Positions 10,309 through 34,472 of a stretch of 64,000 nucleotides of DNA are shown one piece after another. Under the pieces are notes generated by a model, which made no database searches, had not been told where the DNA came from, and worked only from the letters and a program-made list of their open reading frames with translations. The stretch lies in the NCBI RefSeq assembly GCF_013167455.1, contig NZ_CP038328.1, one strand, 5' to 3'. Every line of letters begins with the position of its first letter. Position 1 is the stretch's first letter. This stretch comes from Escherichia coli O157:H7. Its GTDB lineage: Bacteria; Pseudomonadota; Gammaproteobacteria; Enterobacterales; Enterobacteriaceae. A program made the position numbers and the translations under genes.

Positions 10309-10597
10309 AGCCTCCTCCCGGGTCCAGAACGCACTCAGCCGGGTATGGTTCAGCCCATTTTTCCCGGCGTCTCATGCCGCAAATGTTAACTGCTGCCTGG
10401 TTAACATTTGCTGAAAAAGCCAGTTAACATTTTTTCCGCACAACAAACTGAATAATAAAGATAAAAACCGCAAAAATGCCCGGACAGCCAGTTAACATGT
10501 TAACTGCCCTGAAACGGGAATTTTTTCTCTGCGTGAGAGGGGGGGCGGTGTCCGGGGCGATCGTTTTTTTCGCCGGATGATCCCCCCCCGGGGCGGG
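10309..10597. other. putative cos / terminase recognition region
   Basis: Five GTTAAC-centred repeats (agccagttaacat twice, aaatgttaac…ggttaacattt inverted repeat) followed by a G/C-rich element gagggggggcggtgtccggggcgatcg…gatccccccccggggcggg; lies between HNH and terS. Confidence 0.5.
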
Positions 10598-14642: not shown

Positions 14643-16493
14643 TTATGCTGCCGGTGCATTTATCTCCAGCATCAGACTTTCTATCTCAACGCCATACGCT
14701 GCATTTTTTGTAACATCCGTCAGCGTCAGCGCATTCAGTCCCAGTGTCAGACTGTCTTTTATAACCTGGAATGCCGGGCCAGCCACTCCATTCAGTTTCG
14801 GAGTAACCGTGGCACTGCCGGCGGTGAACACCAGCTCCAGCGTCTGCCAGTCGTTACCGTAATCGCCGAACTCCCCCAGCTTCGTGTTTCCGGCTTTCCT
14901 GTGATGCATCAGATTCACTCTGCCGTCAGTGGTCTGAGTGAAGTACGACATCAGGAACGGATTACCGGTACCCGTCATCGCCACACCATCAGGAACGGGA
15001 GCATCCGTATACAGATAAATCCCCAGCCCGAACTGATTGTTGGTCAGCGCGCCTGACAGGCGGAACTTACAGGTCAGTCTGCCGCCCTGTGTCAGCAGGG
15101 TAATTGCGTCATCCACCGGATGCGTCAGGGACCAGGTTTTATTGCTCTGCTTGGTGATCTTAAATACACCATCTGACAACTGAATTCCGCCATCCTTAAT
15201 GCTCCAGCCCTGCGCAGCAGCCTCTCCGGCTGCCGGCAGCAGGGAGATTGTGCGAACGGACGTATCTGCAGACGGACCCGATGGCGTGTTGCCGCCGGGC
15301 GAGGGTTTGATTTCCGGTGCCTTACCACTGATGAAGGCTGAGGTGCGCCCGGCTGCGTTCAGAATAGCGGTTGCCAGACGATCCGGAATAATGCTCCTGC
15401 GCGCCCATGAACTGAAATGTGTCGGGCGGTTTGATGATACCTGGTTTCCATTCGTTCTCGATGCCGCACCGTAATATCCTGATGCCGGAATATCCGGATC
15501 TTCTGCCGGCGCGTTAGTGGCGGTATTGACGCCGTTACCGTCTGTCATGAAGGGCACAAAATAAACGCCCTCACTCTCCCTGTTTTTATACCCGCCGTAC
15601 ACGGTGTCGTACTGGGTAGCGTATGTATTTTTCCAGTAATACGTCGTGTCACCACAAATCCACGGCACATCTGCAGCACTGCCACCATGGCACTGCGCGT
15701 TAAACACGGAGAGGTCAGCACGAAACTGTGTCAGCATGGCTGTAAACAGCGCAGGTTGCTGTGCGTGGGTGGCGGCGCTCATGTCAAACTCTCCCTGCAT
15801 CCAGCACACCGCCAGCAACACATTTTTCGGGTTCTTCTGTAATGCAGCTTTAGTGCGCGCAATCAGGTCCTGATATAACGGTTTACCCACACCCCAGCGT
15901 GCCGAATCCTGGCTGGCCCCCGTGTCCGCACTGAATGTCCCCTCCGCGCCCTGGGTGAATGCAGAACCACCACGACAGCATGGTACCAGCAGGATCCCCG
16001 CGTTATTCGGGATATACGGGAGCAGTTTTTTGGCAATATGTAAGCCCTGGCCGACACAGCCGTACTGCCCTTTGCTCAGGTCTGCCTTCGGATGATTCAG
16101 CGTACTCATATCCTGCACATCATGCAGGCAGTGGTCGGCCGGAATAATATCGTTATATCTGCATGCAGCCCCACCCGGCGTAACTGTACTGCGGCGCGCC
16201 AGCTGTTTAATGCGCGGATCCGGAGCATCGTATGAATCCGGCAGCGGAAGCCCTTCACCGTAAGCCATGGCATTGGACTGCCCGGCCAGTACGATGACGT
16301 AGTACCAATCCGGCTCAGTTGCACCACTGACCACCACATCACCTTCTGCTGTAATCGCCTGCATCAGGGTATAAGGGGTTATGGCCACCGGACTACCAAA
16401 CGGCTGCCAGCCCTCTTTCAGTTTGTGTGTCAGCTTTTCCGCAAGGTCTGACGGCGACGCCGCCCTGACAACATCATAATGTTTAAATGTCAT
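14643..16493 (-). CDS. prophage sialate O-acetylesterase (NanS-p-like; N-terminal DUF1737 plus SGNH esterase)
   Basis: 616 aa; N-terminus MTFKHYDVVRAASPSDLAEKLTHKLKEGWQPFGSPVAITPY…; VIVLAGQSNAMAYG esterase motif; located upstream of S as in Stx phages. Confidence 0.75.
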   Translation of the reverse strand: MTFKHYDVVRAASPSDLAEKLTHKLKEGWQPFGSPVAITPYTLMQAITAEGDVVVSGATEPDWYYVIVLAGQSNAMAYGEGLPLPDSYDAPDPRIKQLARRSTVTPGGAACRYNDIIPADHCLHDVQDMSTLNHPKADLSKGQYGCVGQGLHIAKKLLPYIPNNAGILLVPCCRGGSAFTQGAEGTFSADTGASQDSARWGVGKPLYQDLIARTKAALQKNPKNVLLAVCWMQGEFDMSAATHAQQPALFTAMLTQFRADLSVFNAQCHGGSAADVPWICGDTTYYWKNTYATQYDTVYGGYKNRESEGVYFVPFMTDGNGVNTATNAPAEDPDIPASGYYGAASRTNGNQVSSNRPTHFSSWARRSIIPDRLATAILNAAGRTSAFISGKAPEIKPSPGGNTPSGPSADTSVRTISLLPAAGEAAAQGWSIKDGGIQLSDGVFKITKQSNKTWSLTHPVDDAITLLTQGGRLTCKFRLSGALTNNQFGLGIYLYTDAPVPDGVAMTGTGNPFLMSYFTQTTDGRVNLMHHRKAGNTKLGEFGDYGNDWQTLELVFTAGSATVTPKLNGVAGPAFQVIKDSLTLGLNALTLTDVTKNAAYGVEIESLMLEINAPAA

Positions 16494-16702
16494 TATTCCT
16501 CCCGGCCGGGATAGTGTATTAAATCAGATATGGAGTGGGCTGTAGTCCGGAAGCCTGAATGACACACGGGGACTACAGCCCAAGAAATGAAAAAAGGCCA
16601 CGCAGTTGCGCAGCCTGATAAACCCTGGTTAAAATCCACACGATAACAACACAACAATATCAGTATCTCATGCTATTGCCCGAACCCATTCGGGCATTTT
16701 TT

Positions 16703-16735
16703 TACCCATAAAAAATGCCCCTCCGGAGAGGGGCA
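16703..16735 (-). terminator. intrinsic terminator downstream of TerB-like gene
   Basis: gcccctccggagaggggc stem with U-run on the minus strand. Confidence 0.5.
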
Positions 16736-17065
16736 TGTTTGCATGCACATTCTTTTTCTTGCATGGTGCCGGGTGCCTCCCGGTGAATTCAGTATCAGCA
16801 CCTGAATCCGCGATTATCCCATATACCTGGTTGCTGATCGCCCCTCCGCACAGGGGGATTCACCATGCAGAAGTGTTTTTAATAAACAGCAAACAAAAAA
16901 ATCAAGCATTATGCAGGCTGTTTCTTTTTATCACCGGCCACAGCAATACCACAATGCCGCAGACCAGCACCCCATCCGCCAGCACCGACATGATTCTGCT
17001 GGTGAAATCCACCATCACCACCAGAAACAGCAGGAGTGCAGCCACAGCCAGGCGCAGTTTTACCG

Positions 17066-17497
17066 TCACAGGTGATTCTCCAGACGAAGACCCAGAACAC
17101 CGGCAATCTCTTCCAGCACCTTGCGCTCTTCCGGCTCAATTTCGCCGTCTGCCTCCGCAATGGCCACCGCCACATCCAGCACATCTTCCGCTTCACGCGT
17201 ATCGTGTTTCACATCCTCAATCTCGCGTAACGCGGCACGACGACCAATTTTAAAATTGGTATCCAGCTGACCGATAATGGTTGCGCTAATCGCATTAATT
17301 TCCGAGGTAAACGCAGACAACGCAGGCTGATTACGTAAGACCTGTTCGATCTTCGCTTTCTCGGATGCCTCGCATTCACCATCTGCATAGGCCACCAGGT
17401 ATGCAGCGTTAATCACCGCCTGTGCCAGATCGCGTTTCTCAAACTTTTTAATTTCCGCTGCCGCTCTGCGGGTTTTCTTTTTGAAGATTCCAAACAT
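17066..17497 (-). CDS. TerB-like (tellurite-resistance TerB domain) protein
   Basis: Start MFGIFKKKTRRAAAEIKKFEKRDLAQAVINAAYLVAYADGECEASEKAKIEQ…, acidic C-terminal half; occupies the position between the tRNAs and nanS-like gene. Confidence 0.6.
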   Translation of the reverse strand: MFGIFKKKTRRAAAEIKKFEKRDLAQAVINAAYLVAYADGECEASEKAKIEQVLRNQPALSAFTSEINAISATIIGQLDTNFKIGRRAALREIEDVKHDTREAEDVLDVAVAIAEADGEIEPEERKVLEEIAGVLGLRLENHL

Positions 17498-17666
17498 CGT
17501 GACGTTCCTTTGGGTGGGTGAGCCAACGCCCGGGAGCGATCTGCCCACAGAGAAAGTCACACTGACCACTCCGTAAGCTCACCCCCGAAAGGCTCTGTGG
17601 TTGATATGCGCCGGGCGTGGCGCAGATACAAAAAAGGCCCGCCGAAGCGAGCCTGGAAAATAAGTG

Positions 17667-17743
17667 TGGCGCGTTGTAGTGGAGTCTAACCACTGACCGA
17701 TTGCTTAGAAGGCAATTGCTCTGTCCGACTGAGCTAACAACGC
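17667..17743 (-). tRNA. tRNA-Arg (anticodon UCU)
   Basis: Cloverleaf gcgttgt/acaacgc acceptor, anticodon loop cuUCUaa, unusual T-loop ttagact, CCA encoded. Confidence 0.75.
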
Positions 17744-17756
17744 ATGATGCTGATAA

Positions 17757-17833
17757 TGGACCGCCATCGGGGACTTGAACCCCGCGCAGCCAGCTTCGAA
17801 GGCTGGCGCTCTGTCCCGATGAGCTAATAGCGG
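17757..17833 (-). tRNA. tRNA-Arg (anticodon UCG)
   Basis: Cloverleaf with anticodon stem ccagc/gctgg, loop cuUCGaa, T-arm cgggg-ttcaagt-ccccg, CCA encoded. Confidence 0.7.
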
Positions 17834-17842
17834 TATGTAATA

Positions 17843-17918
17843 TGGTGGCCCTTGCTGGATTTGAACCAGCGACCTGGCGATTATGAGTCGCTCGCTCTCA
17901 CCACTGAGCTAAAGGGCC
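17843..17918 (-). tRNA. ileZ: tRNA-Ile2 (anticodon CAU, ileX/ileZ-like)
   Basis: ggccctttagctcagtggtgagagcgagcgactCATaatcgcc…; near-identical to E. coli tRNA-Ile2 (ileX) from memory; first of three tRNAs downstream of Q. Confidence 0.75.
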
Positions 17919-19264: not shown

Positions 19265-19711
19265 ATGAATAAAATGACTGTACTATTACTTAGCGCAACT
19301 ATCATTTCAGGTTGTACTTCTTCCGTACCATTGATAAAGAAAACTCAATCAGGAAAACCTGAGGGGGTTTATCAAAATACGACAAAAGATAAAGTCAAAG
19401 ATGCCCTTGTGAATTACTGCAATAGTAGAGGGTTGATAATTTACAACGCGGATAACAGCAGTGTTATATGTGGTAAAGAACTGGAAGGCGGCTCTGCTGT
19501 TTTTGGACAAATGTTAATCGGCAATGCCTATTCAACAACCCCGGTATCAAAAGTCAGATTTACTATCGCTCAAGTTAATAACGATACAAAAGTGTGGGCC
19601 GATATGTGGATGGAAACTCAAATGGCAATGGGGCAAGTACAACAAATGTCTATAACAGACAACGCAAGCAAAAACACTATCCAACAACGTCTTGATGAAT
19701 TAAAACCTTAA
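19265..19711 (+). CDS. AT-rich lipoprotein (moron)
   Basis: 148 aa; signal peptide with lipobox LLSATIISGC; opposite strand to all surrounding late genes; own hairpin terminator at 19726-19747. Confidence 0.6.
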   Translation: MNKMTVLLLSATIISGCTSSVPLIKKTQSGKPEGVYQNTTKDKVKDALVNYCNSRGLIIYNADNSSVICGKELEGGSAVFGQMLIGNAYSTTPVSKVRFTIAQVNNDTKVWADMWMETQMAMGQVQQMSITDNASKNTIQQRLDELKP

Positions 19712-19791: not shown

Positions 19792-20172
19792 CTAACGATC
19801 CATCTCTAGCTCAATTTCTAACATCATTAACATGCCATCAACTACACCTTCAGCCTTTTGCAATAAACGCCCAACCCAGCAATCAGAACGCCCATGTTTA
19901 CGGGCAAGCGCCATAAAAGTCATACCACCTACATAATAATCCACTAATAAATCGTGCAAATCGCTGTTGTTCTTTTTCAGGCGAGCCATGCATCCACAAA
20001 TGATCATCGCGTCATCGTCACAACATTGCGGGCGGGATTTTACTTTTGAAGGGATTAGTCCTTTAAACCCTGCAGCAATAGACGACCAGGTGACATCCTC
20101 GTGATTATTTGCCACCCATGCCCCCCAACGTTCAAGAACCATTTGAATATCACGCATCAACTTTCTCCACAA
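19792..20172 (-). CDS. Q: late antiterminator Q (933W-type)
   Basis: …[60 protein letters not shown]… matches Q of Stx-type phages from memory; alternative start at 20157. Confidence 0.8.
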
Positions 20173-20174
20173 AA

Positions 20175-21170
20175 TCAGGCCAGCACGCCAATTGCCAGCG
20201 CACGATCGATAAAACGAAATATCAGCTCCAGCTGGGAGCCATACTTCTCTTCAAATGCCACGGTATCCGCATGCAGCTCGTCGTGATGCTTTCTGCACAA
20301 AGGCAACACAAAAAGGTCATGCGCTTTTGTTCCCATTCCACCCTGACCGTGACCTATCAGGTGGTGGGGATCATCAGCGGGCTTTCCACAACATGCACAC
20401 GGCTGTGTCTTAACCCAGCGCGTGTACTTTTCATTAACCCAGCGGCGACGTTTTGGGCGTAACATAAAAGACTCCGGCGACTCCGGATCCACTTTCAGCG
20501 CCAGCACCTTTTTCGCCTTATCCTGGATGATGCTGGTGGCAGGAACCGAAGGCACAAGGTCACTTTCCCGGGTAACAGACGGCACAACAGGCTTCGGTAA
20601 TCTCAGTGCCTTACGGGCTGCACTTTCCGGTAAGGCATCCGCCAGATCATTACGAATCAGCCACCAGCACAGTTCCGGCATTGTCACAACGTGACTGTCA
20701 TCAAAACCGAGATCCCGACGCACAACAGACAACACCCAGCGGGCACAGTTATCCGTTGCCATTGATTCCAGCCGTTCCGTGAACTGATCGCGCAGCTGGT
20801 TATCGCAGTGCCAGCACAGACGGATTGCACCCGGAGCGTGTCGCATTGTGGTCATGTTCTCGCTGTGCCAGTCGGAATGAGGCCACTGGCAGCCTTTTTC
20901 ACGAAGTAACCAGCTTTCAAGACATTCCACGCCACCAGCACGACGGATCACTGCCTCATTGCGGAACACGGCCCGAACGGCAGGATCATCCGCCAGCGGT
21001 TGTGATGCCGCCGGAACGGCACCACTGGCGAAAGATGAATAACGCTCCGGCTCAGGCTCCAGCAGGACACGCCCCTGCATAAACAGGGGCATCAGCTCTG
21101 AACCTGGCCTGAACAATACGATCCCCATACGCGGGGCAATTTCAGGGGTCAGTAGTGCTCTCACGGTCAC
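20175..21170 (-). CDS. DUF968-family prophage protein with C-terminal HNH-like Cys/His motif
   Basis: 331 aa; C-terminus …[45 protein letters not shown]…; immediately upstream of Q. Confidence 0.55.
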
Positions 21171-21171
21171 C

Positions 21172-22389
21172 TCAATGAACGGTATCGAGCAGCTTTAACA
21201 GCTCAGGGAATCGGGATTCGAAGAAATGCGGCTGCGTCTCGCGCGGATTTGCGGGACTGGTGATGTTCTTGCCGAACATGCAGCCTTTCGCTGTCAGCGA
21301 CCAGAATTTTTTGATGTTGTTAATCGCGGTACGACTGTATCGTTCGCGCTGCTCGACGATCCCCAGTTTCACCATCTGGTGATATGCCTGATTAGCCGTC
21401 AGGCGTATACCATACTGTTTCAGCAGTGCACTCAGTGACAGTGTCGGGCGACTTGAGCCATCGTGTGCATCAGCAGGAGCATCAATGGCATAGCGCGGTG
21501 CCAGATTCGGTAAGCCAACAGCCTCCTGGAGTTTCTGACAGGCACCAAGCACAGATGAGTTAGACAGGTTTAACTCCCGACGCATAAAGTCCAGCAGAAT
21601 CACACCAGCCTGCATCTTGTCAGCAGCCTGTCCGGATAATTTTTCCGGTGCGCTGGTTACCATGTCGAAAGTACGGATCACCTTAAGATGGAATGACGGG
21701 CTTATCCACATTGCATAGGCATACACCAGTTCCTTGCAGACATACGTTCCCCGTTCATTTCCCCCATGAATCACACTCACCGGGTCAACACCCAAATTCT
21801 GGGTGTTGGTCAATTCATGAACAAGTTCAACAGTTTGTTGGCTGGAAAGAAACTTTCCTGGCTCCTTGGTTCTGGCATTTGCACCAGATGCTACTGCTGC
21901 GCGATGTAGATCGTTCAGGCTGTAACGCCCATAAACATCACGACGAACTTCAATACCATCAATGACCATCAGATTATTCATACTTCGTTTCTCCTCTTGA
22001 TCAGGCGGCTGCACCCGCCGTTTTCTCGTACTTACTGATAGTGATCTCGACCTTCCCTTTCGGGATAACCGGTCCCACTCCACCAGCATTCTTTTCACCT
22101 GACTGTCGTCTTCCCACACACCCGCGTGGGTCAGGGCGTCAAACAGCGCCTTGTTATAGTTGTCCAGATCGCGGATCCTGTTATCCGGAGGAAACAACAC
22201 GATCTCCACTGAAGCAGGTGCCGACGTTGGTTTCGGCAGACGACGTAACTGCTCAATGATGGCGGCACACGCCGCGCTCTGAAATTTTCGCCCCGCCTCG
22301 CTTATCAGGCTCTTACCAGCAAATGCCCCTTTGTTGGGGTGTCGCCAGTACGTGTTCACGCTGGGCGGGAAAGGCAGGATCAGCTTCAT
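21172..22389 (-). CDS. RusA-like Holliday-junction resolvase fused in frame to a KilA-N-domain protein
   Basis: N-terminus MKLILPFPPSVNTYWRH…RDLDNYNKALFDALTHAGVWEDDSQV (RusA); from MNNLMVIDGIEVRRDVYGRYSLNDLHRAAV (KilA-N) with its own AGGAGA RBS; no stop between the two. Confidence 0.6.
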   Translation of the reverse strand: MKLILPFPPSVNTYWRHPNKGAFAGKSLISEAGRKFQSAACAAIIEQLRRLPKPTSAPASVEIVLFPPDNRIRDLDNYNKALFDALTHAGVWEDDSQVKRMLVEWDRLSRKGRSRSLSVSTRKRRVQPPDQEEKRSMNNLMVIDGIEVRRDVYGRYSLNDLHRAAVASGANARTKEPGKFLSSQQTVELVHELTNTQNLGVDPVSVIHGGNERGTYVCKELVYAYAMWISPSFHLKVIRTFDMVTSAPEKLSGQAADKMQAGVILLDFMRRELNLSNSSVLGACQKLQEAVGLPNLAPRYAIDAPADAHDGSSRPTLSLSALLKQYGIRLTANQAYHQMVKLGIVEQRERYSRTAINNIKKFWSLTAKGCMFGKNITSPANPRETQPHFFESRFPELLKLLDTVH

Positions 22390-22712
22390 ACTTTCAGGCC
22401 CCTCTGATGTAACCAGTGGGTTGCACGCAGCCTGGCGTTTTCCTCACCGGCAAGCAGTGAGCGGATAATCCCGACCGCCTCGCTGTCGTCGTCCTTCACC
22501 GCGGTATGAAGCGTGATGCCCCGGGCCACGCCACGCTTTATCGTGATGACACCTTTTTTCTCCAGTGCGCGAAGATGCTCCACCGCTGCATTCACTGAAC
22601 GGTATCCCAGCATGATTGCCACCTCCTGATTGGTTGGCGGGAAGCCACGTTCTTTCTGATAAGAAATCAGCATATCCAGCACCTGCTGCTGGCATTGAGT
22701 TAACGTCGTCAT
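22386..22712 (-). CDS. LexA-like DNA-binding domain protein lacking the peptidase domain
   Basis: 108 aa; MTTLTQCQQQVLDMLISYQKERGFPPTNQEVAIMLGYRSVNAAVEHLRALEKKGVITIKRGVARGI parallels LexA residues 1-70. Confidence 0.65.
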   Translation of the reverse strand: MTTLTQCQQQVLDMLISYQKERGFPPTNQEVAIMLGYRSVNAAVEHLRALEKKGVITIKRGVARGITLHTAVKDDDSEAVGIIRSLLAGEENARLRATHWLHQRGLKV

Positions 22713-23362
22713 GCCGCCATCTCCCTGACCAGTTTTTCCGCCTGCTGGCGAACCTGCGCCAGAAACGCCTCACCACATGCCTCAAGTTCATCGCGCCCGA
22801 TGTAGCTGATTGCCGGTCCCTTCCAGGTCTTATCGAAAACAGCAATAGCACCAGCGAAGAAAGCGCCTGTCGGCACCTGCTTCTCATCCTTCGGGATAAA
22901 CCAGGCAGGCAGTTCAAAACCAATACGCCCGCGAATAAAAGCAATATGGTCCGCATCTTCCGGCCACCACACTTCGCTGGTGGCAGCTTTGATCAGGAAA
23001 ACATAGCGCCCACCCTTATCACGCATGGCACTGGCATGTTTCATGATGTAACGCATGCCGGTGATGTATTGCCCCTCATGCTGACTGGCGCGGCTGTATG
23101 GGGGATTACCAAAGGCAGCCCCTTTAAGCTCCGCAAGACGTTCTGACCAGTCATGCGCCAGCGCGTTGTCTTCCGCCGTGTAATACGCAGCACATTTGGC
23201 GTTATCACCGTCAGTGAACAGATCCAGAACAAACGGGCCAAACAGGGTGTTAATTCCCCAGAAAATGTTGTCCGGCGTGCGCCACTGATCACCCACTTCC
23301 TTCAGTTCATGGGCTGGTTTGTTCCGCAGTTCCACCAGCTCCTGGCAATATTTATTACTCAT
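22709..23362 (-). CDS. phage DNA N6-adenine methyltransferase
   Basis: …AAFGNPPYSRASQ… (NPPY motif); start MSNKYCQELVELRNK taken at 23362, sharing one base with the upstream stop (TAATG). Confidence 0.7.
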   Translation of the reverse strand: MSNKYCQELVELRNKPAHELKEVGDQWRTPDNIFWGINTLFGPFVLDLFTDGDNAKCAAYYTAEDNALAHDWSERLAELKGAAFGNPPYSRASQHEGQYITGMRYIMKHASAMRDKGGRYVFLIKAATSEVWWPEDADHIAFIRGRIGFELPAWFIPKDEKQVPTGAFFAGAIAVFDKTWKGPAISYIGRDELEACGEAFLAQVRQQAEKLVREMAA

Positions 23363-23856
23363 TAAGCCCCCACGTAATTCCCTGACAGATACCACTCATC
23401 ACCCGATACAGCGCGCTTGCTGCTTTTCCGTAAACACTGCTCACGACGCGCCAGAAAATTGTTTCGTTCTGGCTGGGAGTGGCTTTCACGGAATGCCGCC
23501 ATCCACACCGTTGCAGCACGACGGTATAAGCCCCTGGACTCCAGTTCTTCCGCCTGGCGGGTCAGGCACAAAATCACCCGGGGATCGTTAGTGCCGACAT
23601 AGAAATTGCGCACAGGTCTGGTTTCACGAACTGGTTGTGGTTCCGGCTCCTGCGCTCTCTCAGTCAGGCGTGGGAAATGTCTGCGTGTATCTCCTTCACA
23701 ACGGTGAGCCACACGCCCACTCTGACGTAACTTGCTTGCTGACTGCAGAACGCGCTGCCGTGAGTAACCTGCAAAAGCATCCGCAATGTCTCCGGAAGTA
23801 CACCCCGGATGGGCTTCAATGAATTTCTGAACTTCATTCAAAAGACTCATGATCAC
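23362..23856 (-). CDS. putative regulator with PerC/ANR-like C-terminal motif
   Basis: 164 aa; …AEELESRGLYRRAATVWMAAFRESHSQPERNNFLARREQCL… resembles PerC-family proteins (recalled, unverified). Confidence 0.3.
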   Translation of the reverse strand: MIMSLLNEVQKFIEAHPGCTSGDIADAFAGYSRQRVLQSASKLRQSGRVAHRCEGDTRRHFPRLTERAQEPEPQPVRETRPVRNFYVGTNDPRVILCLTRQAEELESRGLYRRAATVWMAAFRESHSQPERNNFLARREQCLRKSSKRAVSGDEWYLSGNYVGA

Positions 23857-24671
23857 CCCCTGAATCCTGCCGGGATCTGGCTGTAGTCCACGTTGTCGTA
23901 ACTGGCTTTGAAGTACGGGTCCTCGCGTCTGGCTGCAGATACCGCAGGAACTTCCCAGGATTCTTCGAAATGACGATCCGGACCAAAGAACGTGACAGCC
24001 TGTTTCACAAATTGTGTGCCGCTGTTACCCATCGCAGATACCCAGCCCGCGTAGCGTTTCACACCTTCCAGCATGGTTTCGGGGTTTACCCCCTCATTCA
24101 AACGGGCTTTCCAGGCTTTGAAGGCTGCAGATTTTGAATTGCCACCAGCACGTTTGGGATATGCCAGCCATGCCTGCTCAAACTCCGGAGAGTATTCCGG
24201 TCGGTTTGAACGAACTCGCACGGACTCATCAACTGATGCACCAACAGCTATTGGTTCATTGACTGGTTCTTTGACTGGTTCAAAAGAGTGACTGGTTCTG
24301 GGTGAATCTCCTGCACTACCCCCTGGTGCAACTCCTGCACTACCTGGTGAATTTGCTGCGCCAGATAGTGAATTATTTGCACTACCCCCTAGTGAATCTC
24401 CTGCACCATCCAGATGAAGGAGATAGATATTACTTGAGTTACCTTTTTCACCTTTCCGGGTGACTTTTTTTACCAGCCCGGACTCACAAAGGGCCGCAAT
24501 ATGATTCATCACAGAACGTTTGCTAATCTCGCACTGGTCAGCAATATGCTGGTAGCTGGGCCAGCACTCCCCCTGATCGCTGGCATTATCAGCCAGCTTG
24601 ATCAGAACCAGTTTTCGCAATGGATTACCCACTCGAATTTTCATCGCTTTAACCATCAGCTCCATACTCAT
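23853..24671 (-). CDS. replication initiator (O-like: N-terminal HTH, low-complexity linker, C-terminal domain)
   Basis: 272 aa; …KLVLIKLADNASDQGECWPSYQHIADQCEISKRSVMNHIAALCESGLV…; middle encodes G/S/A/N-rich linker coinciding with DNA direct repeats. Confidence 0.55.
   Translation of the reverse strand: MSMELMVKAMKIRVGNPLRKLVLIKLADNASDQGECWPSYQHIADQCEISKRSVMNHIAALCESGLVKKVTRKGEKGNSSNIYLLHLDGAGDSLGGSANNSLSGAANSPGSAGVAPGGSAGDSPRTSHSFEPVKEPVNEPIAVGASVDESVRVRSNRPEYSPEFEQAWLAYPKRAGGNSKSAAFKAWKARLNEGVNPETMLEGVKRYAGWVSAMGNSGTQFVKQAVTFFGPDRHFEESWEVPAVSAARREDPYFKASYDNVDYSQIPAGFRG
24240..24420. repeat. two sets of short direct repeats (candidate origin iterons) inside the O-like gene
   Basis: 3x TGACTGGTTC (24262-24299) followed by about 5 copies of a 21-24-bp unit GTGAATCTCCTGCACTACCCCCT-like (24302-24415). 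Confidence 0.6.
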
Positions 24672-24892
24672 GCTGCACCTCCGAGATGCTTCATGTTTTT
24701 TCCGGAGCGAAAGGCTATAAGCGGCATACTGACGCGGTAATTACGGCCCAGCGGTTCACAAATCACCTTCTGACATTCACGGTCAACCAGGCTAACACGT
24801 AGAACATGCCCTGCAGGTGTGGTGTACCACTGACCCGGACGAGGACAACGGAAAGTCTGATTGGTAAACCGTTTGAAAATATTCCGGATCAT
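24668..24892 (-). CDS. hypothetical small protein
   Basis: 74-aa ORF translationally coupled (4-nt overlaps) to both neighbours. Confidence 0.4.
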   Translation of the reverse strand: MIRNIFKRFTNQTFRCPRPGQWYTTPAGHVLRVSLVDRECQKVICEPLGRNYRVSMPLIAFRSGKNMKHLGGAA

Positions 24893-26049
24893 TTGCGCCC
24901 CCTTACCTCTGAAGGGTTCAGCGACAAATTTATGAGGCAGGCCAGCGCCGAAGCATCATTAATATAATCATATAAGCTAACAGCCAGCGGAGATTCAGCT
25001 TTTGCCAACATAGGATAAAGCTGCTGCAGCCAGACCTTGTGGATTACCGACAGGTGGGAGTAAAGCACGCTGGCGTTATCTGCGGCATCGCTCAGCGTGG
25101 ATGGCTTTGAAAGCAGTTTTTCCATCTGGTTAAAGGCATTGATGTATGCCTCTTTGAACCGGGCAGCACGTTTACCCGTGAAACCCATAGCAAGAAACGC
25201 AAAACCGTCTCGTGTGATTTGATAGCAAGGGAGCTTGCGTGTACCACCGTTCGGTTGATTTACCGAAATCGATGTCTCCGCAAAATTGCGGGCACAAAAC
25301 TCAGGGGAACAATCCAGAGTGCGGATCTTTTTCAGCACATCGTCGTGACGCTTGGAGAAGAAGTTGGCAACAGCCAAAGAAGTGGTAACGGCCTGGCCGT
25401 TGTCAATGGTGATTTCAGGTTGAGTGAGGGCTTGGATCGTAGCCATGATGGCAGCCTCCGTTGACAGTGAAAAACTTCCACCACCGGAAACGCCAATTTC
25501 ACTGGTGGTGAACTGGACGGGGTTGGCGTAACCGGCGTCAACGGAGACCGGCGCACCTTTCGGTGCCCCCGCCCAGCCCACCATAATCTGGATGTGAGCA
25601 AATGCGGACGATAAAAAAGACGCTGGCGCGTCATACATCGCCGTTGACAATTTCAGGACGCCAATCCCGGCACCCGCTTTATAAGGTGCCTGAACAGTGT
25701 AACGTCCCGGAATTGCAGAATCAATATGCTGGTGGTCCTTCACACTCAACAAAATCACGCCTGAATTTCCACAAAGGACTAAAGCACTCATGCGGGTAGT
25801 CTTTGCGAAGATAGATAACGCGCTGTGTTTCTGGCTCCCAACGAATAACATGAACATAAAGTCCTCTTCCGTCACGAAACCAGCGGTTAAGTTCCTGCAC
25901 AACTCGCCCCCCACAGTCAGGTAAAGTTCTCTGTGGTTACTTACAGCCAGGTGATTTGGTAATCTGCATTCATGCCGTAACAACAAGTGTTCAGCGACGC
26001 TGACCACCAGCTGTTGCGACAAACGGTTATTTGCCGTTAAACTGTTCAT
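24889..26049 (-). CDS. Rha-family phage regulatory protein with unusual N-terminal extension
   Basis: 386-aa ORF; region MATIQALTQPEITIDNGQAVTTSLAVANFFSKRHDDVLKKIRTL…TRDGFAFLAMGFTGKRAARFKEAYINAFNQME is Rha-like; the first ~190 aa are unrecognised and may reflect a later true start. Confidence 0.5.
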   Translation of the reverse strand: MNSLTANNRLSQQLVVSVAEHLLLRHECRLPNHLAVSNHRELYLTVGGELCRNLTAGFVTEEDFMFMLFVGSQKHSALSIFAKTTRMSALVLCGNSGVILLSVKDHQHIDSAIPGRYTVQAPYKAGAGIGVLKLSTAMYDAPASFLSSAFAHIQIMVGWAGAPKGAPVSVDAGYANPVQFTTSEIGVSGGGSFSLSTEAAIMATIQALTQPEITIDNGQAVTTSLAVANFFSKRHDDVLKKIRTLDCSPEFCARNFAETSISVNQPNGGTRKLPCYQITRDGFAFLAMGFTGKRAARFKEAYINAFNQMEKLLSKPSTLSDAADNASVLYSHLSVIHKVWLQQLYPMLAKAESPLAVSLYDYINDASALACLINLSLNPSEVRGRK

Positions 26050-26630
26050 GCGTTAGTTTCTCCACAACCAGAAGCAATCGACGCCACGACGCCCGGAGCT
26101 GCACACTCGCGGGCGTTACTCTTTTCCGGTGCACAAAAAACACGAAATAACAGTGTTAAATGCTCCTGCCACTTCGCCATTACTTGGTAGCTGTTCTCTT
26201 CGATTTGCTCACGCTCAGCCTGGTCAATAACTCCATCAGCAGTTGCCTTGCGTAAGTACTGGGAATGCTTGCCAATCCATTCTATTGACTCCATCAGCCG
26301 CTGATTAATGTCACCATTGTCAATGTCATCAATGACCACCAGCGGCACAAACACCCCATAACTACGACGGGCTATTGCATCTGTTACATGCCTGGTACCA
26401 CTGGCATCCTGTAAAACCATGGCCCACTCAAGTGGAAAAATTTGATCCCCACCGCTACGCAGTCTGTTATGCAATTGATCTTTTGCTGGGGTGATATCAT
26501 CAGATTTATACAAACCAAGAATTTCTGCTGCTTCCTCATAGCCATGAGGTAAATCAGCAATCGTTCTTCGTATTGCTGCCACCAGCCATGCTGGTTGTTT
26601 ATCAACTTTCCATTCAGGTTCTTTACCCAC
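26046..26630 (-). CDS. early-right operon protein (CII position; possibly YdaT-like)
   Basis: 194-aa ORF immediately downstream of cro; no firm motif. Confidence 0.35.
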   Translation of the reverse strand: MGKEPEWKVDKQPAWLVAAIRRTIADLPHGYEEAAEILGLYKSDDITPAKDQLHNRLRSGGDQIFPLEWAMVLQDASGTRHVTDAIARRSYGVFVPLVVIDDIDNGDINQRLMESIEWIGKHSQYLRKATADGVIDQAEREQIEENSYQVMAKWQEHLTLLFRVFCAPEKSNARECAAPGVVASIASGCGETNA

Positions 26631-33483: not shown

Positions 33484-33903
33484 TTACTCATCATCAATAG
33501 ATGATACGCAATATTTATTTTTAAATTTAAGGTTCTTTGGCGTAACTTCATCAGAGATATCAAAACCGTCCAGAATTCTATTGAATGTAGCTTCTGGCAT
33601 ATCATCATGAACAGAAATCTCACCCGATCGCTGCTTTCTAACCATGTTATCCACTCGCCAAATTATAGCTTCAGCGTAAACAACATAACTTGGATGCTTG
33701 ATAAAGCGATGATCACCAGAATTCAAGACGCAAGACGGATCGTGGGGGACACCATCCTTGATACTAGAAATATTAACAACTAAAACACAATAACAATCGT
33801 TAACGGGGTAATAAACAGGATCATTACAAATCACATGAAGATGATTGCATGGTCCAGTTGGGGCAAGCACAGTTCCTTTCCTGTATGGCTGATAATCCGT
33901 CAT
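33484..33903 (-). CDS. hypothetical protein (candidate toxin/effector partner)
   Basis: 139 aa, Cys/His-rich (…CNHLHVICND…HDPSCVLNSGDHRFIKHPSY…); ATGA overlap with the upstream gene. Confidence 0.55.
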   Translation of the reverse strand: MTDYQPYRKGTVLAPTGPCNHLHVICNDPVYYPVNDCYCVLVVNISSIKDGVPHDPSCVLNSGDHRFIKHPSYVVYAEAIIWRVDNMVRKQRSGEISVHDDMPEATFNRILDGFDISDEVTPKNLKFKNKYCVSSIDDE

Positions 33904-34472
33904 GATAATTGCAAAGAAAATTCCTTAAGTTTCTGAGATTCTTCCATTTTGCCAATTATGCGATTAGCCTCATCCTCGCTTTTACCCTCACTGATCAGCA
34001 TTTCTTTCAGGTCTATAGGCTTACGAGAATTGCCAGGATCGTGCCACTCTGGACAAACGCTTTCTAAATGCGTCATATTTGCGAGATCAAATCGGTTCAT
34101 ATGCCCATACCGAGAATAGATTTCATCTAAAATCCGGATATCTGCACGACTCAATTCATCAAAGACCTCGTCTGCATCCATTTCCCTCGGATCTGAACGC
34201 AACGATACATTATGCCCGTTCGTCTCTATCAAGTTGTACCAGTAGTCACCAATGCCTTCAGCCTTACCGCGAATCAAGTTCAGCGTATTCGACATGACTG
34301 GTCCAAATTTCATAGAGTAAAGGCTATCTTCGCCGATCATCCTGCCATGCTTCAAAATCGACTGGCGGTTAGACAGATAGAGCAGCTTCATCAATTTCAG
34401 ATATGCCATGCGCCCACCTCTCTTAAGAAGTAGGTATGCAGCCATTTGAGCTACTTTTTCTTCGCAAAACAT
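33900..34472 (-). CDS. Panacea (DUF4065/SocA-like) antitoxin-domain protein
   Basis: 190 aa; N-terminus MFCEEKVAQMAAYLLLKRGGRMAYLKLMKLLYLSNRQSILKHG resembles the N-terminal signature of Panacea-domain proteins (recalled); AT-rich. Confidence 0.5.
   Translation of the reverse strand: MFCEEKVAQMAAYLLLKRGGRMAYLKLMKLLYLSNRQSILKHGRMIGEDSLYSMKFGPVMSNTLNLIRGKAEGIGDYWYNLIETNGHNVSLRSDPREMDADEVFDELSRADIRILDEIYSRYGHMNRFDLANMTHLESVCPEWHDPGNSRKPIDLKEMLISEGKSEDEANRIIGKMEESQKLKEFSLQLS

Follow-up and report, generated by a model that had tools for sequence, protein, structure and literature searches.

Reading frame at the locus and its two domains

The window, i.e. the whole analysed stretch of 64,000 nucleotides of Escherichia coli O157:H7 DNA, holds on its minus strand an uninterrupted ATG-to-stop ORF of 405 codons (1218 nt, positions 21172-22389). 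Its parts are as follows (all on the minus strand).

21172..22389, the whole ORF: RusA residues 1-105, a 31-residue out-of-frame linker and full KilA-N, predicted 45.4 kDa
22075..22389, rusA in its native frame, codons 1-105 (Pfam, PDB 1Q8R alignment, ORF coordinates)
22074..22076, the lesion: 3 G (CCC on the plus strand) where relatives have 4 G, a 1-nt homopolymer deletion (alignments, indel census)
22001..22075, relic of the native RusA C-terminus in the other frame, GPVIPKGKVEITISKYEKTAGAAA, followed by TGA at 22001-22003
21982..22074, linker, codons 106-136, DRLSRKGRSRSLSVSTRKRRVQPPDQEEKRS: RusA C-terminal coding sequence and the 19-nt intergenic spacer, read in the wrong frame
21991..21996, KilA-N Shine-Dalgarno sequence GAGGAG, 9 nt upstream of the ATG, the same as in relatives
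21172..21981, native KilA-N gene, 269 aa, 29.9 kDa, with the KilA-N domain at 21655-21963 (Pfam, PHROG, exact protein match); the N-terminal peptide of its product begins at MNNLMVIDGIEVR

The start codon of rusA overlaps the stop codon of an upstream LexA-like gene (ATGA). The RusA family model PF05866 matches residues 6-104 of the ORF (E 7.5e-13) but covers model positions 1-110 of 124 only, and PHROG 34 matches with E 2.2e-48. The KilA-N model PF04383 matches residues 143-245 (E 1.4e-21), in this case nearly from end to end (model positions 5-105 of 107). The PF04383 family takes in phage P1 KilA, baculovirus Bro proteins and fungal APSES-type DNA-binding domains. PHROG 129 ("transcriptional regulator") covers the whole 269-aa protein, its match starting at M137, and the C-terminal part of this protein corresponds to PHROG 6486, which is without annotation. 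Genuine RusA homology ends at residue 105 and the KilA-N gene starts at M137.

A preliminary description of this locus had reported an uninterrupted frame with RusA followed by KilA-N, its strand unstated, and KilA-N with a ribosome binding site and an ATG of its own (MNNLMVIDG). Both observations are borne out, the former by ORF coordinates and Pfam, the latter by GAGGAG, spaced 9 nt from the ATG at residue 137. The RusA-like domain had been extended there to about residue 125, which does not agree with the end of the Pfam match or with residues 106-136, where the C-terminus is read in the wrong frame.

Conserved and lost segments of RusA

Mutagenesis has identified R69, D70, D72, N73, K76 and D91 of E. 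coli RusA as residues required in catalysis or DNA binding (PMC10956419), and the roles of catalytic and DNA-binding residues are also described in PMC1636454. RusA is a dimer, and its active sites form only on dimerisation (PMC10956419). In the alignment with 1Q8R, the six residues are kept in the window as R73, D74, D76, N77, K80 and D95, all of them upstream of the frame shift. They are thus common to the window protein and E. coli K-12 RusA (DLP12 prophage; PDB 1Q8R, 2H8C and 2H8E). In contrast to the K-12 protein, the window protein exchanges the equivalents of residues 102-120 for an unrelated basic sequence and 269 further residues. With the reading frame repaired, RusA residues 3-120 align to 1Q8R residues 6-116 of 120 (E 1.5e-17). 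The score against the K-12 RusA equivalog model is 69 bits, well under the cut-off of 200, indicating that the RusA subfamily in the window differs from the K-12 equivalog.

The fold is not complete in the protein as encoded. Equivalents of E. coli RusA 102-120 are lost, including 7 positions invariant in 20 homologs, and, on this comparison, RusA as encoded is truncated or disrupted. The lost segment probably supplies the final strand of a four-stranded sheet which makes up the dimer interface; this reading is based on an alternating V-E-I-T-I pattern and on a strand at 113-120 in the AlphaFold model of the repaired protein, a model of low confidence (pLDDT 54.8). With the conserved C-terminal segment gone, the RusA moiety probably cannot act as a Holliday-junction resolvase. 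A literature survey gave no data on C-terminal truncations of RusA and nothing decisive on truncations or fusions; in the FokI-RusA paper, fusions were N-terminal only.

Single-base deletion and the linker

The window reads TGGGAC where relatives examined read TGGGGAC, the G run spanning rusA codons 105-106. In codons, GAG TGG GAC CGG in the window is aligned with GAG TGG GGA CCG in relatives. When one G is put back, the frame gives a 129-aa RusA (14.2 kDa) that ends with TGA 19 nt ahead of the KilA-N ATG. An indel relative to intact homologs is therefore combined here with another frame that restores a conserved and widespread 129-aa RusA. The relic of the native C-terminus holds residues G106, P107, G112, V114, E115, I116 and I118, which are invariant in the 20 homologs, and in their place the window's frame encodes DRLSRKGRSRSLS... 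The linker DRLSRKGRSRSLSVSTRKRRVQPPDQEEKRS contains 8 Arg and 6 Ser and has a pI of 11.8.

The rusA stop codon is kept at 22001-22003, out of frame, about 24 codons downstream of the deletion, and is bypassed because the upstream change from G4 to G3 shifts the frame. The shifted frame then runs into KilA-N owing to a CAA that stands shortly before the Shine-Dalgarno sequence in this allele, at a position where many relatives have TAA. At the local base composition, the chance that a stretch of 31 codons stays open is about 0.23, so the open linker frame is unremarkable in itself.

Comparison with homologous prophages, suggested in the preliminary description, revealed the frameshift at the junction. 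The earlier explanation of a lost stop codon comes close, as the stop is passed over owing to the 1-nt deletion, but is wrong in its mechanism, the TGA itself being intact. Nor can RusA be regarded as fused in frame as a whole protein, since its C-terminus sits in the other frame.

A 5-bp GC hairpin (GGCGG-GUGCAG-CCGCC, 22004-22019, minus strand) can form at the native stop of rusA, shortly before the Shine-Dalgarno sequence of KilA-N. The 66-nt segment that includes it has a folding energy of -10.6 kcal/mol, which is no better than that of shuffled sequences (z = -0.13), and the hairpin is therefore probably merely an effect of the Ala/Gly-rich codons of the RusA tail.

Homologous loci and the frequency of the deleted allele

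The junction was compared by megablast with 5426 complete E. coli genomes and 50,697 phage records, and thousands of homologous loci were found, with 95-99% identity. Among the matches listed, 40 of 40 in E. coli and 40 of 40 in phages span one base more than the query, and in the full-length ones RusA-family and KilA-N proteins are annotated as separate features. All six annotated relatives (E. coli Z1323CEC0012, G5, 96_1414B and CD45, and phages mEp460 and SfV) have GGGG, and in each of them a rusA gene of 390 nt, a gap of 19 nt and a KilA-N gene of 810 nt are found in RefSeq/GenBank. Gene order is also kept in annotated relatives: dam, LexA-like, rusA, KilA-N, DUF968/HNH and Q.

Phages SfV and mEp460 are named relatives with the same order of the two genes, annotated as orf43 (RusA) and orf44 in the former, and as gp47 (Holliday junction resolvase) and gp48 (KilA-N) in the latter. 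Their junction region of 521 nt is 96-97% identical to that of the window, and the KilA-N Shine-Dalgarno sequence and ATG are identical. The difference is that both phages carry GGGG and two separate genes, whereas the window carries GGG and one ORF of 1218 nt. The two genes belong to known families, as ordinary members, and copies nearly identical to them are found in SfV, mEp460, cdtI and Stx-converting phages.

To assess the frequency of the deletion, a 71-nt probe centred on it was mapped to 2849 places in 2229 E. coli records, corresponding to 2220 complete genomes. At a threshold of at least 99%, the deleted allele was found in none of the 2849 places; the top identity of the probe was 98.6%, corresponding to the single gap. 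Exact scans of IMG/VR gave 0 contigs with the G3 allele and at least 120 contigs with the G4 allele. At the protein level, the repaired 129-aa RusA and the 269-aa protein from M137 each match exactly a protein present on at least 1000 public contigs, while the exact 405-aa protein is absent among about 15 billion public protein sequences. The junction peptide, searched against 5.8 billion protein clusters, retrieved no clean full-length fusion and no match with both Pfam domains. This search returned a handful of sporadic, frameshifted rusA fragments.

Two such fragments illustrate how frame shifts occur in this segment. In a Logan assembly (P0049, SRR21970386), the same G4 to G3 deletion is located in the same run and gives the same wrong-frame peptide, DRLSRKGRSRSLSVS... 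The shifted frame ends there at 130 aa because TAA just before the Shine-Dalgarno sequence replaces CAA of the window, and KilA-N is called separately (269 aa). In a 666-nt metagenome contig with 1.27x coverage (P0031), a neighbouring C is lost and a second frame shift follows.

The intact allele was examined at 118 IMG/VR loci. RusA terminates at its own stop in all of them, and in 102 the KilA-N ATG is exactly 19 nt past it. When deletion of one G was simulated in these loci, the frame stayed open into KilA-N in 41 and was closed by a stop in the remaining 77 (65%). Since the shifted frame is open in just 41 of 118 relatives, the potential for fusion is accidental.

The IMG/VR relatives also include two kinds of variant rusA ends. 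In one of the 118, the rusA TGA is lost by substitution and RusA gains 9 residues (…AAARLRGETKYE) before another stop is reached. A true loss of the stop codon at this position therefore extends the protein briefly and does not produce a fusion. In 14 relatives, rusA has another C-terminus (…KYEKASCKLATR) and no KilA-N gene follows.

Prophage and its insertion site

Positions 34727-64000 of the window (29,274 nt) are 100.000% identical, with no mismatches and no gaps, to E. coli O157:H7 FORC_044, a strain with an intact dusA and without a prophage at this site. The dusA site is likewise empty in O157:H7 genomes whose flank is 100% identical. In view of this identity with a chromosome in which dusA is uninterrupted, the window is O157:H7-lineage chromosome with an additional lambdoid prophage, similar to SfV and mEp460, in dusA. 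The prophage part itself (window positions 1-34727) has top matches in complete E. coli genomes of only 97.8% identity over 81% of the query. Insertion is in the 5' part of dusA, adjoining a DUF2713 gene and zur, and the other end of the prophage lies beyond the window start.

At the prophage end by the attachment site, a cassette of two genes was observed (33484-34472, minus strand). The first is an ORF of 190 aa (33900-34472, minus strand), whose equivalent in 96_1414B is annotated as "Panacea domain-containing protein". Its stop overlaps (ATGA) the start of an ORF of 139 aa without assigned function (33484-33903, minus strand). The cassette looks like a putative PanA-type antitoxin-toxin pair.

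The Q gene (19792-20172, minus strand) is of the short, 126-aa type (PHROG 79), in contrast to the antiterminator of 250 aa in mEp460, SfV and most relatives. Similarity to these relatives ends at about 20179, which marks a mosaic joint. Just downstream of Q, on the opposite strand, is a moron-like ORF of 148 aa (19265-19711, plus strand) with a lipoprotein-like signal (…LSATIISGC…) and a match to PHROG 3152 (unknown function).

Further downstream of the Q-like antiterminator, three tRNA genes are located at 17667-17918 (minus strand), one with CAT anticodon (tRNA-Ile in relatives), followed by Arg-TCG and Arg-TCT. This trio, in the region 14643-17918, is of the type typical of Stx-converting phages, but no stx genes are present. 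Past the trio, relatives carry genes of the TerB family and DUF3927, and then a SASA-family esterase. In the window, the SASA-family esterase (616 aa, 14643-16493, minus strand) is about 1.17 kb distant from the tRNAs.

Differences of one base were also noted elsewhere in the prophage. A run of eight C at 10582-10589, between the small terminase and HNH endonuclease genes, differs by one base in length from that in 96_1414B, which is ordinary homopolymer length variation. The major capsid gene is annotated as frameshifted in 96_1414B (positions 1-1024 of the compared locus), while the capsid ORF of the window is intact (645 aa, 6086-8023) and has one extra C at 7769 relative to 96_1414B. Private single-base frameshifts thus occur in other members of this prophage group as well.

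Origin of the joined reading frame

Taken together, comparison with relatives indicates that the fusion ORF is made up of two adjacent prophage genes of ordinary type, brought into one frame through loss of one G, and is not an evolved bifunctional enzyme. The ancestral state, seen in every relative examined, is a rusA gene of 129 codons ending with TGA, a 19-nt spacer and a KilA-N gene of 269 codons with its own ribosome binding site, placed in the early, nin-like operon of a lambdoid prophage of SfV/mEp460 type. In the window, one G is missing from the GGGG run in rusA codons 105-106. Ribosomes starting at the rusA ATG would translate 105 correct codons and 31 codons in the wrong frame, pass the out-of-frame TGA, enter the KilA-N frame by way of CAA and finish at the KilA-N stop. 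RusA would retain its catalytic Asp and Lys residues and lose the C-terminal segment corresponding to 102-120 of the E. coli protein.

The Shine-Dalgarno sequence and ATG of the native KilA-N gene are intact and the 269-aa ORF is identical to a widespread protein. Because these signals are kept, it is plausible that the native protein of about 30 kDa (29.9 kDa) is still translated from them. Its level may be altered, since ribosomes would elongate through the start site and would no longer terminate just upstream of it. The chimera of 45.4 kDa may be made in addition, and in that case it is likely misfolded at its N-terminus and has no selected function.

We consider it rather probable that the deletion is a real, recent and private mutation of this prophage. 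The host flank is flawless relative to FORC_044 over its whole length. In an indel census of the window against the six relatives, covering the shared early region (20179-26126), the deletion in rusA is the sole unpaired private 1-nt indel. In addition, the same G4 to G3 slip arose independently in another allele, that of SRR21970386. RusA-type resolvases are accessory genes, and loss of one in a resident prophage should therefore be tolerated.

A sequencing or assembly artefact is a serious, although less probable, explanation. The true chromosome would then have GGGG and two separate genes, and the deletion would stem from a miscalled homopolymer or from faulty polishing of a repeated module. 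Deletion of a single base in a homopolymer is the classic error of long-read and 454 sequencing, and the allele is unique to this record in comparison with E. coli genomes, the protein collection and IMG/VR. Moreover, a single E. coli genome can carry as many as 4 copies of the rusA/KilA-N module, which favours mis-mapping in polishing, and low-quality public contigs, such as the metagenome contig P0031, have frame shifts at several nearby points of rusA. This explanation is weakened by the clean indel census and host flank: the 29,274 nt shared with FORC_044 are without a mismatch or gap, and the shared early genes carry no further private 1-nt indels. In addition, a run of four G is short for a systematic homopolymer error.

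If the deletion is real, a stably made chimera of RusA 1-105, with its catalytic and DNA-contact residues intact, the highly basic linker and complete KilA-N might have gained a new or dominant-negative activity, which we regard as very improbable. Were it true, the chimera might tether the KilA-N regulator to branched DNA or poison RusA dimers from other resident lambdoid prophages, and it would represent a snapshot of a one-base slip creating a new domain architecture in a phage.

A natural bifunctional protein, one possibility offered in the preliminary description, would mean a selected tethering of a RusA junction-binding or nuclease module to the KilA-N DNA-binding module. An uninterrupted ORF, retention of the RusA catalytic residues and the whole KilA-N are in accordance with it. 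However, all relatives examined have two genes, the architecture was detected in none of the 2849 E. coli places, in no IMG/VR contig and in no two-domain match of the junction search, and the exact protein, absent from public collections, is unique to this record. The linker is also out-of-frame RusA sequence that displaces family-invariant residues, and in 77 of 118 relatives a stop closes the linker frame, making this reading extremely improbable. An evolved fusion was accordingly rejected as a candidate, as it fails in both features expected of it, a recurring architecture and a maintained linker frame.

Programmed recoding is the least probable reading of all. Here the G run would be a site of ribosomal frameshifting or of transcriptional slippage, RusA and a RusA-KilA-N fusion would both be normal products, and the present allele would be one hard-wired form of this. 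In 41 of the 118 intact relatives KilA-N would indeed be entered in frame after a +1 shift at the run, but the shifted frame is closed in 65% of them and is not conserved. A G4 run followed by ACC is not a known slippery motif, and the sole local RNA structure is the 5-bp hairpin, which lies about 55 nt past the run and has the stability z-score of -0.13 given above. The bifunctional and recoding readings account, even jointly, for a very small share of the probability. Nothing in these results points to a conserved recoding device or to a fusion under selection.

Implications for annotation and for prophage evolution

For annotation, the locus is best entered as rusA with a frameshift, either a pseudogene or a possible sequencing error, followed by an intact KilA-N gene. 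The label "bifunctional resolvase/regulator" would seed a false domain architecture in databases. The frameshifted rusA opens no long-standing question. It does illustrate that the outcome of a frameshift, a truncated protein or two genes joined into one, is set by the distance between the genes and by one CAA/TAA polymorphism. A real mutation would be a further example of the decay of accessory recombination genes in resident prophages of the O157:H7 lineage.
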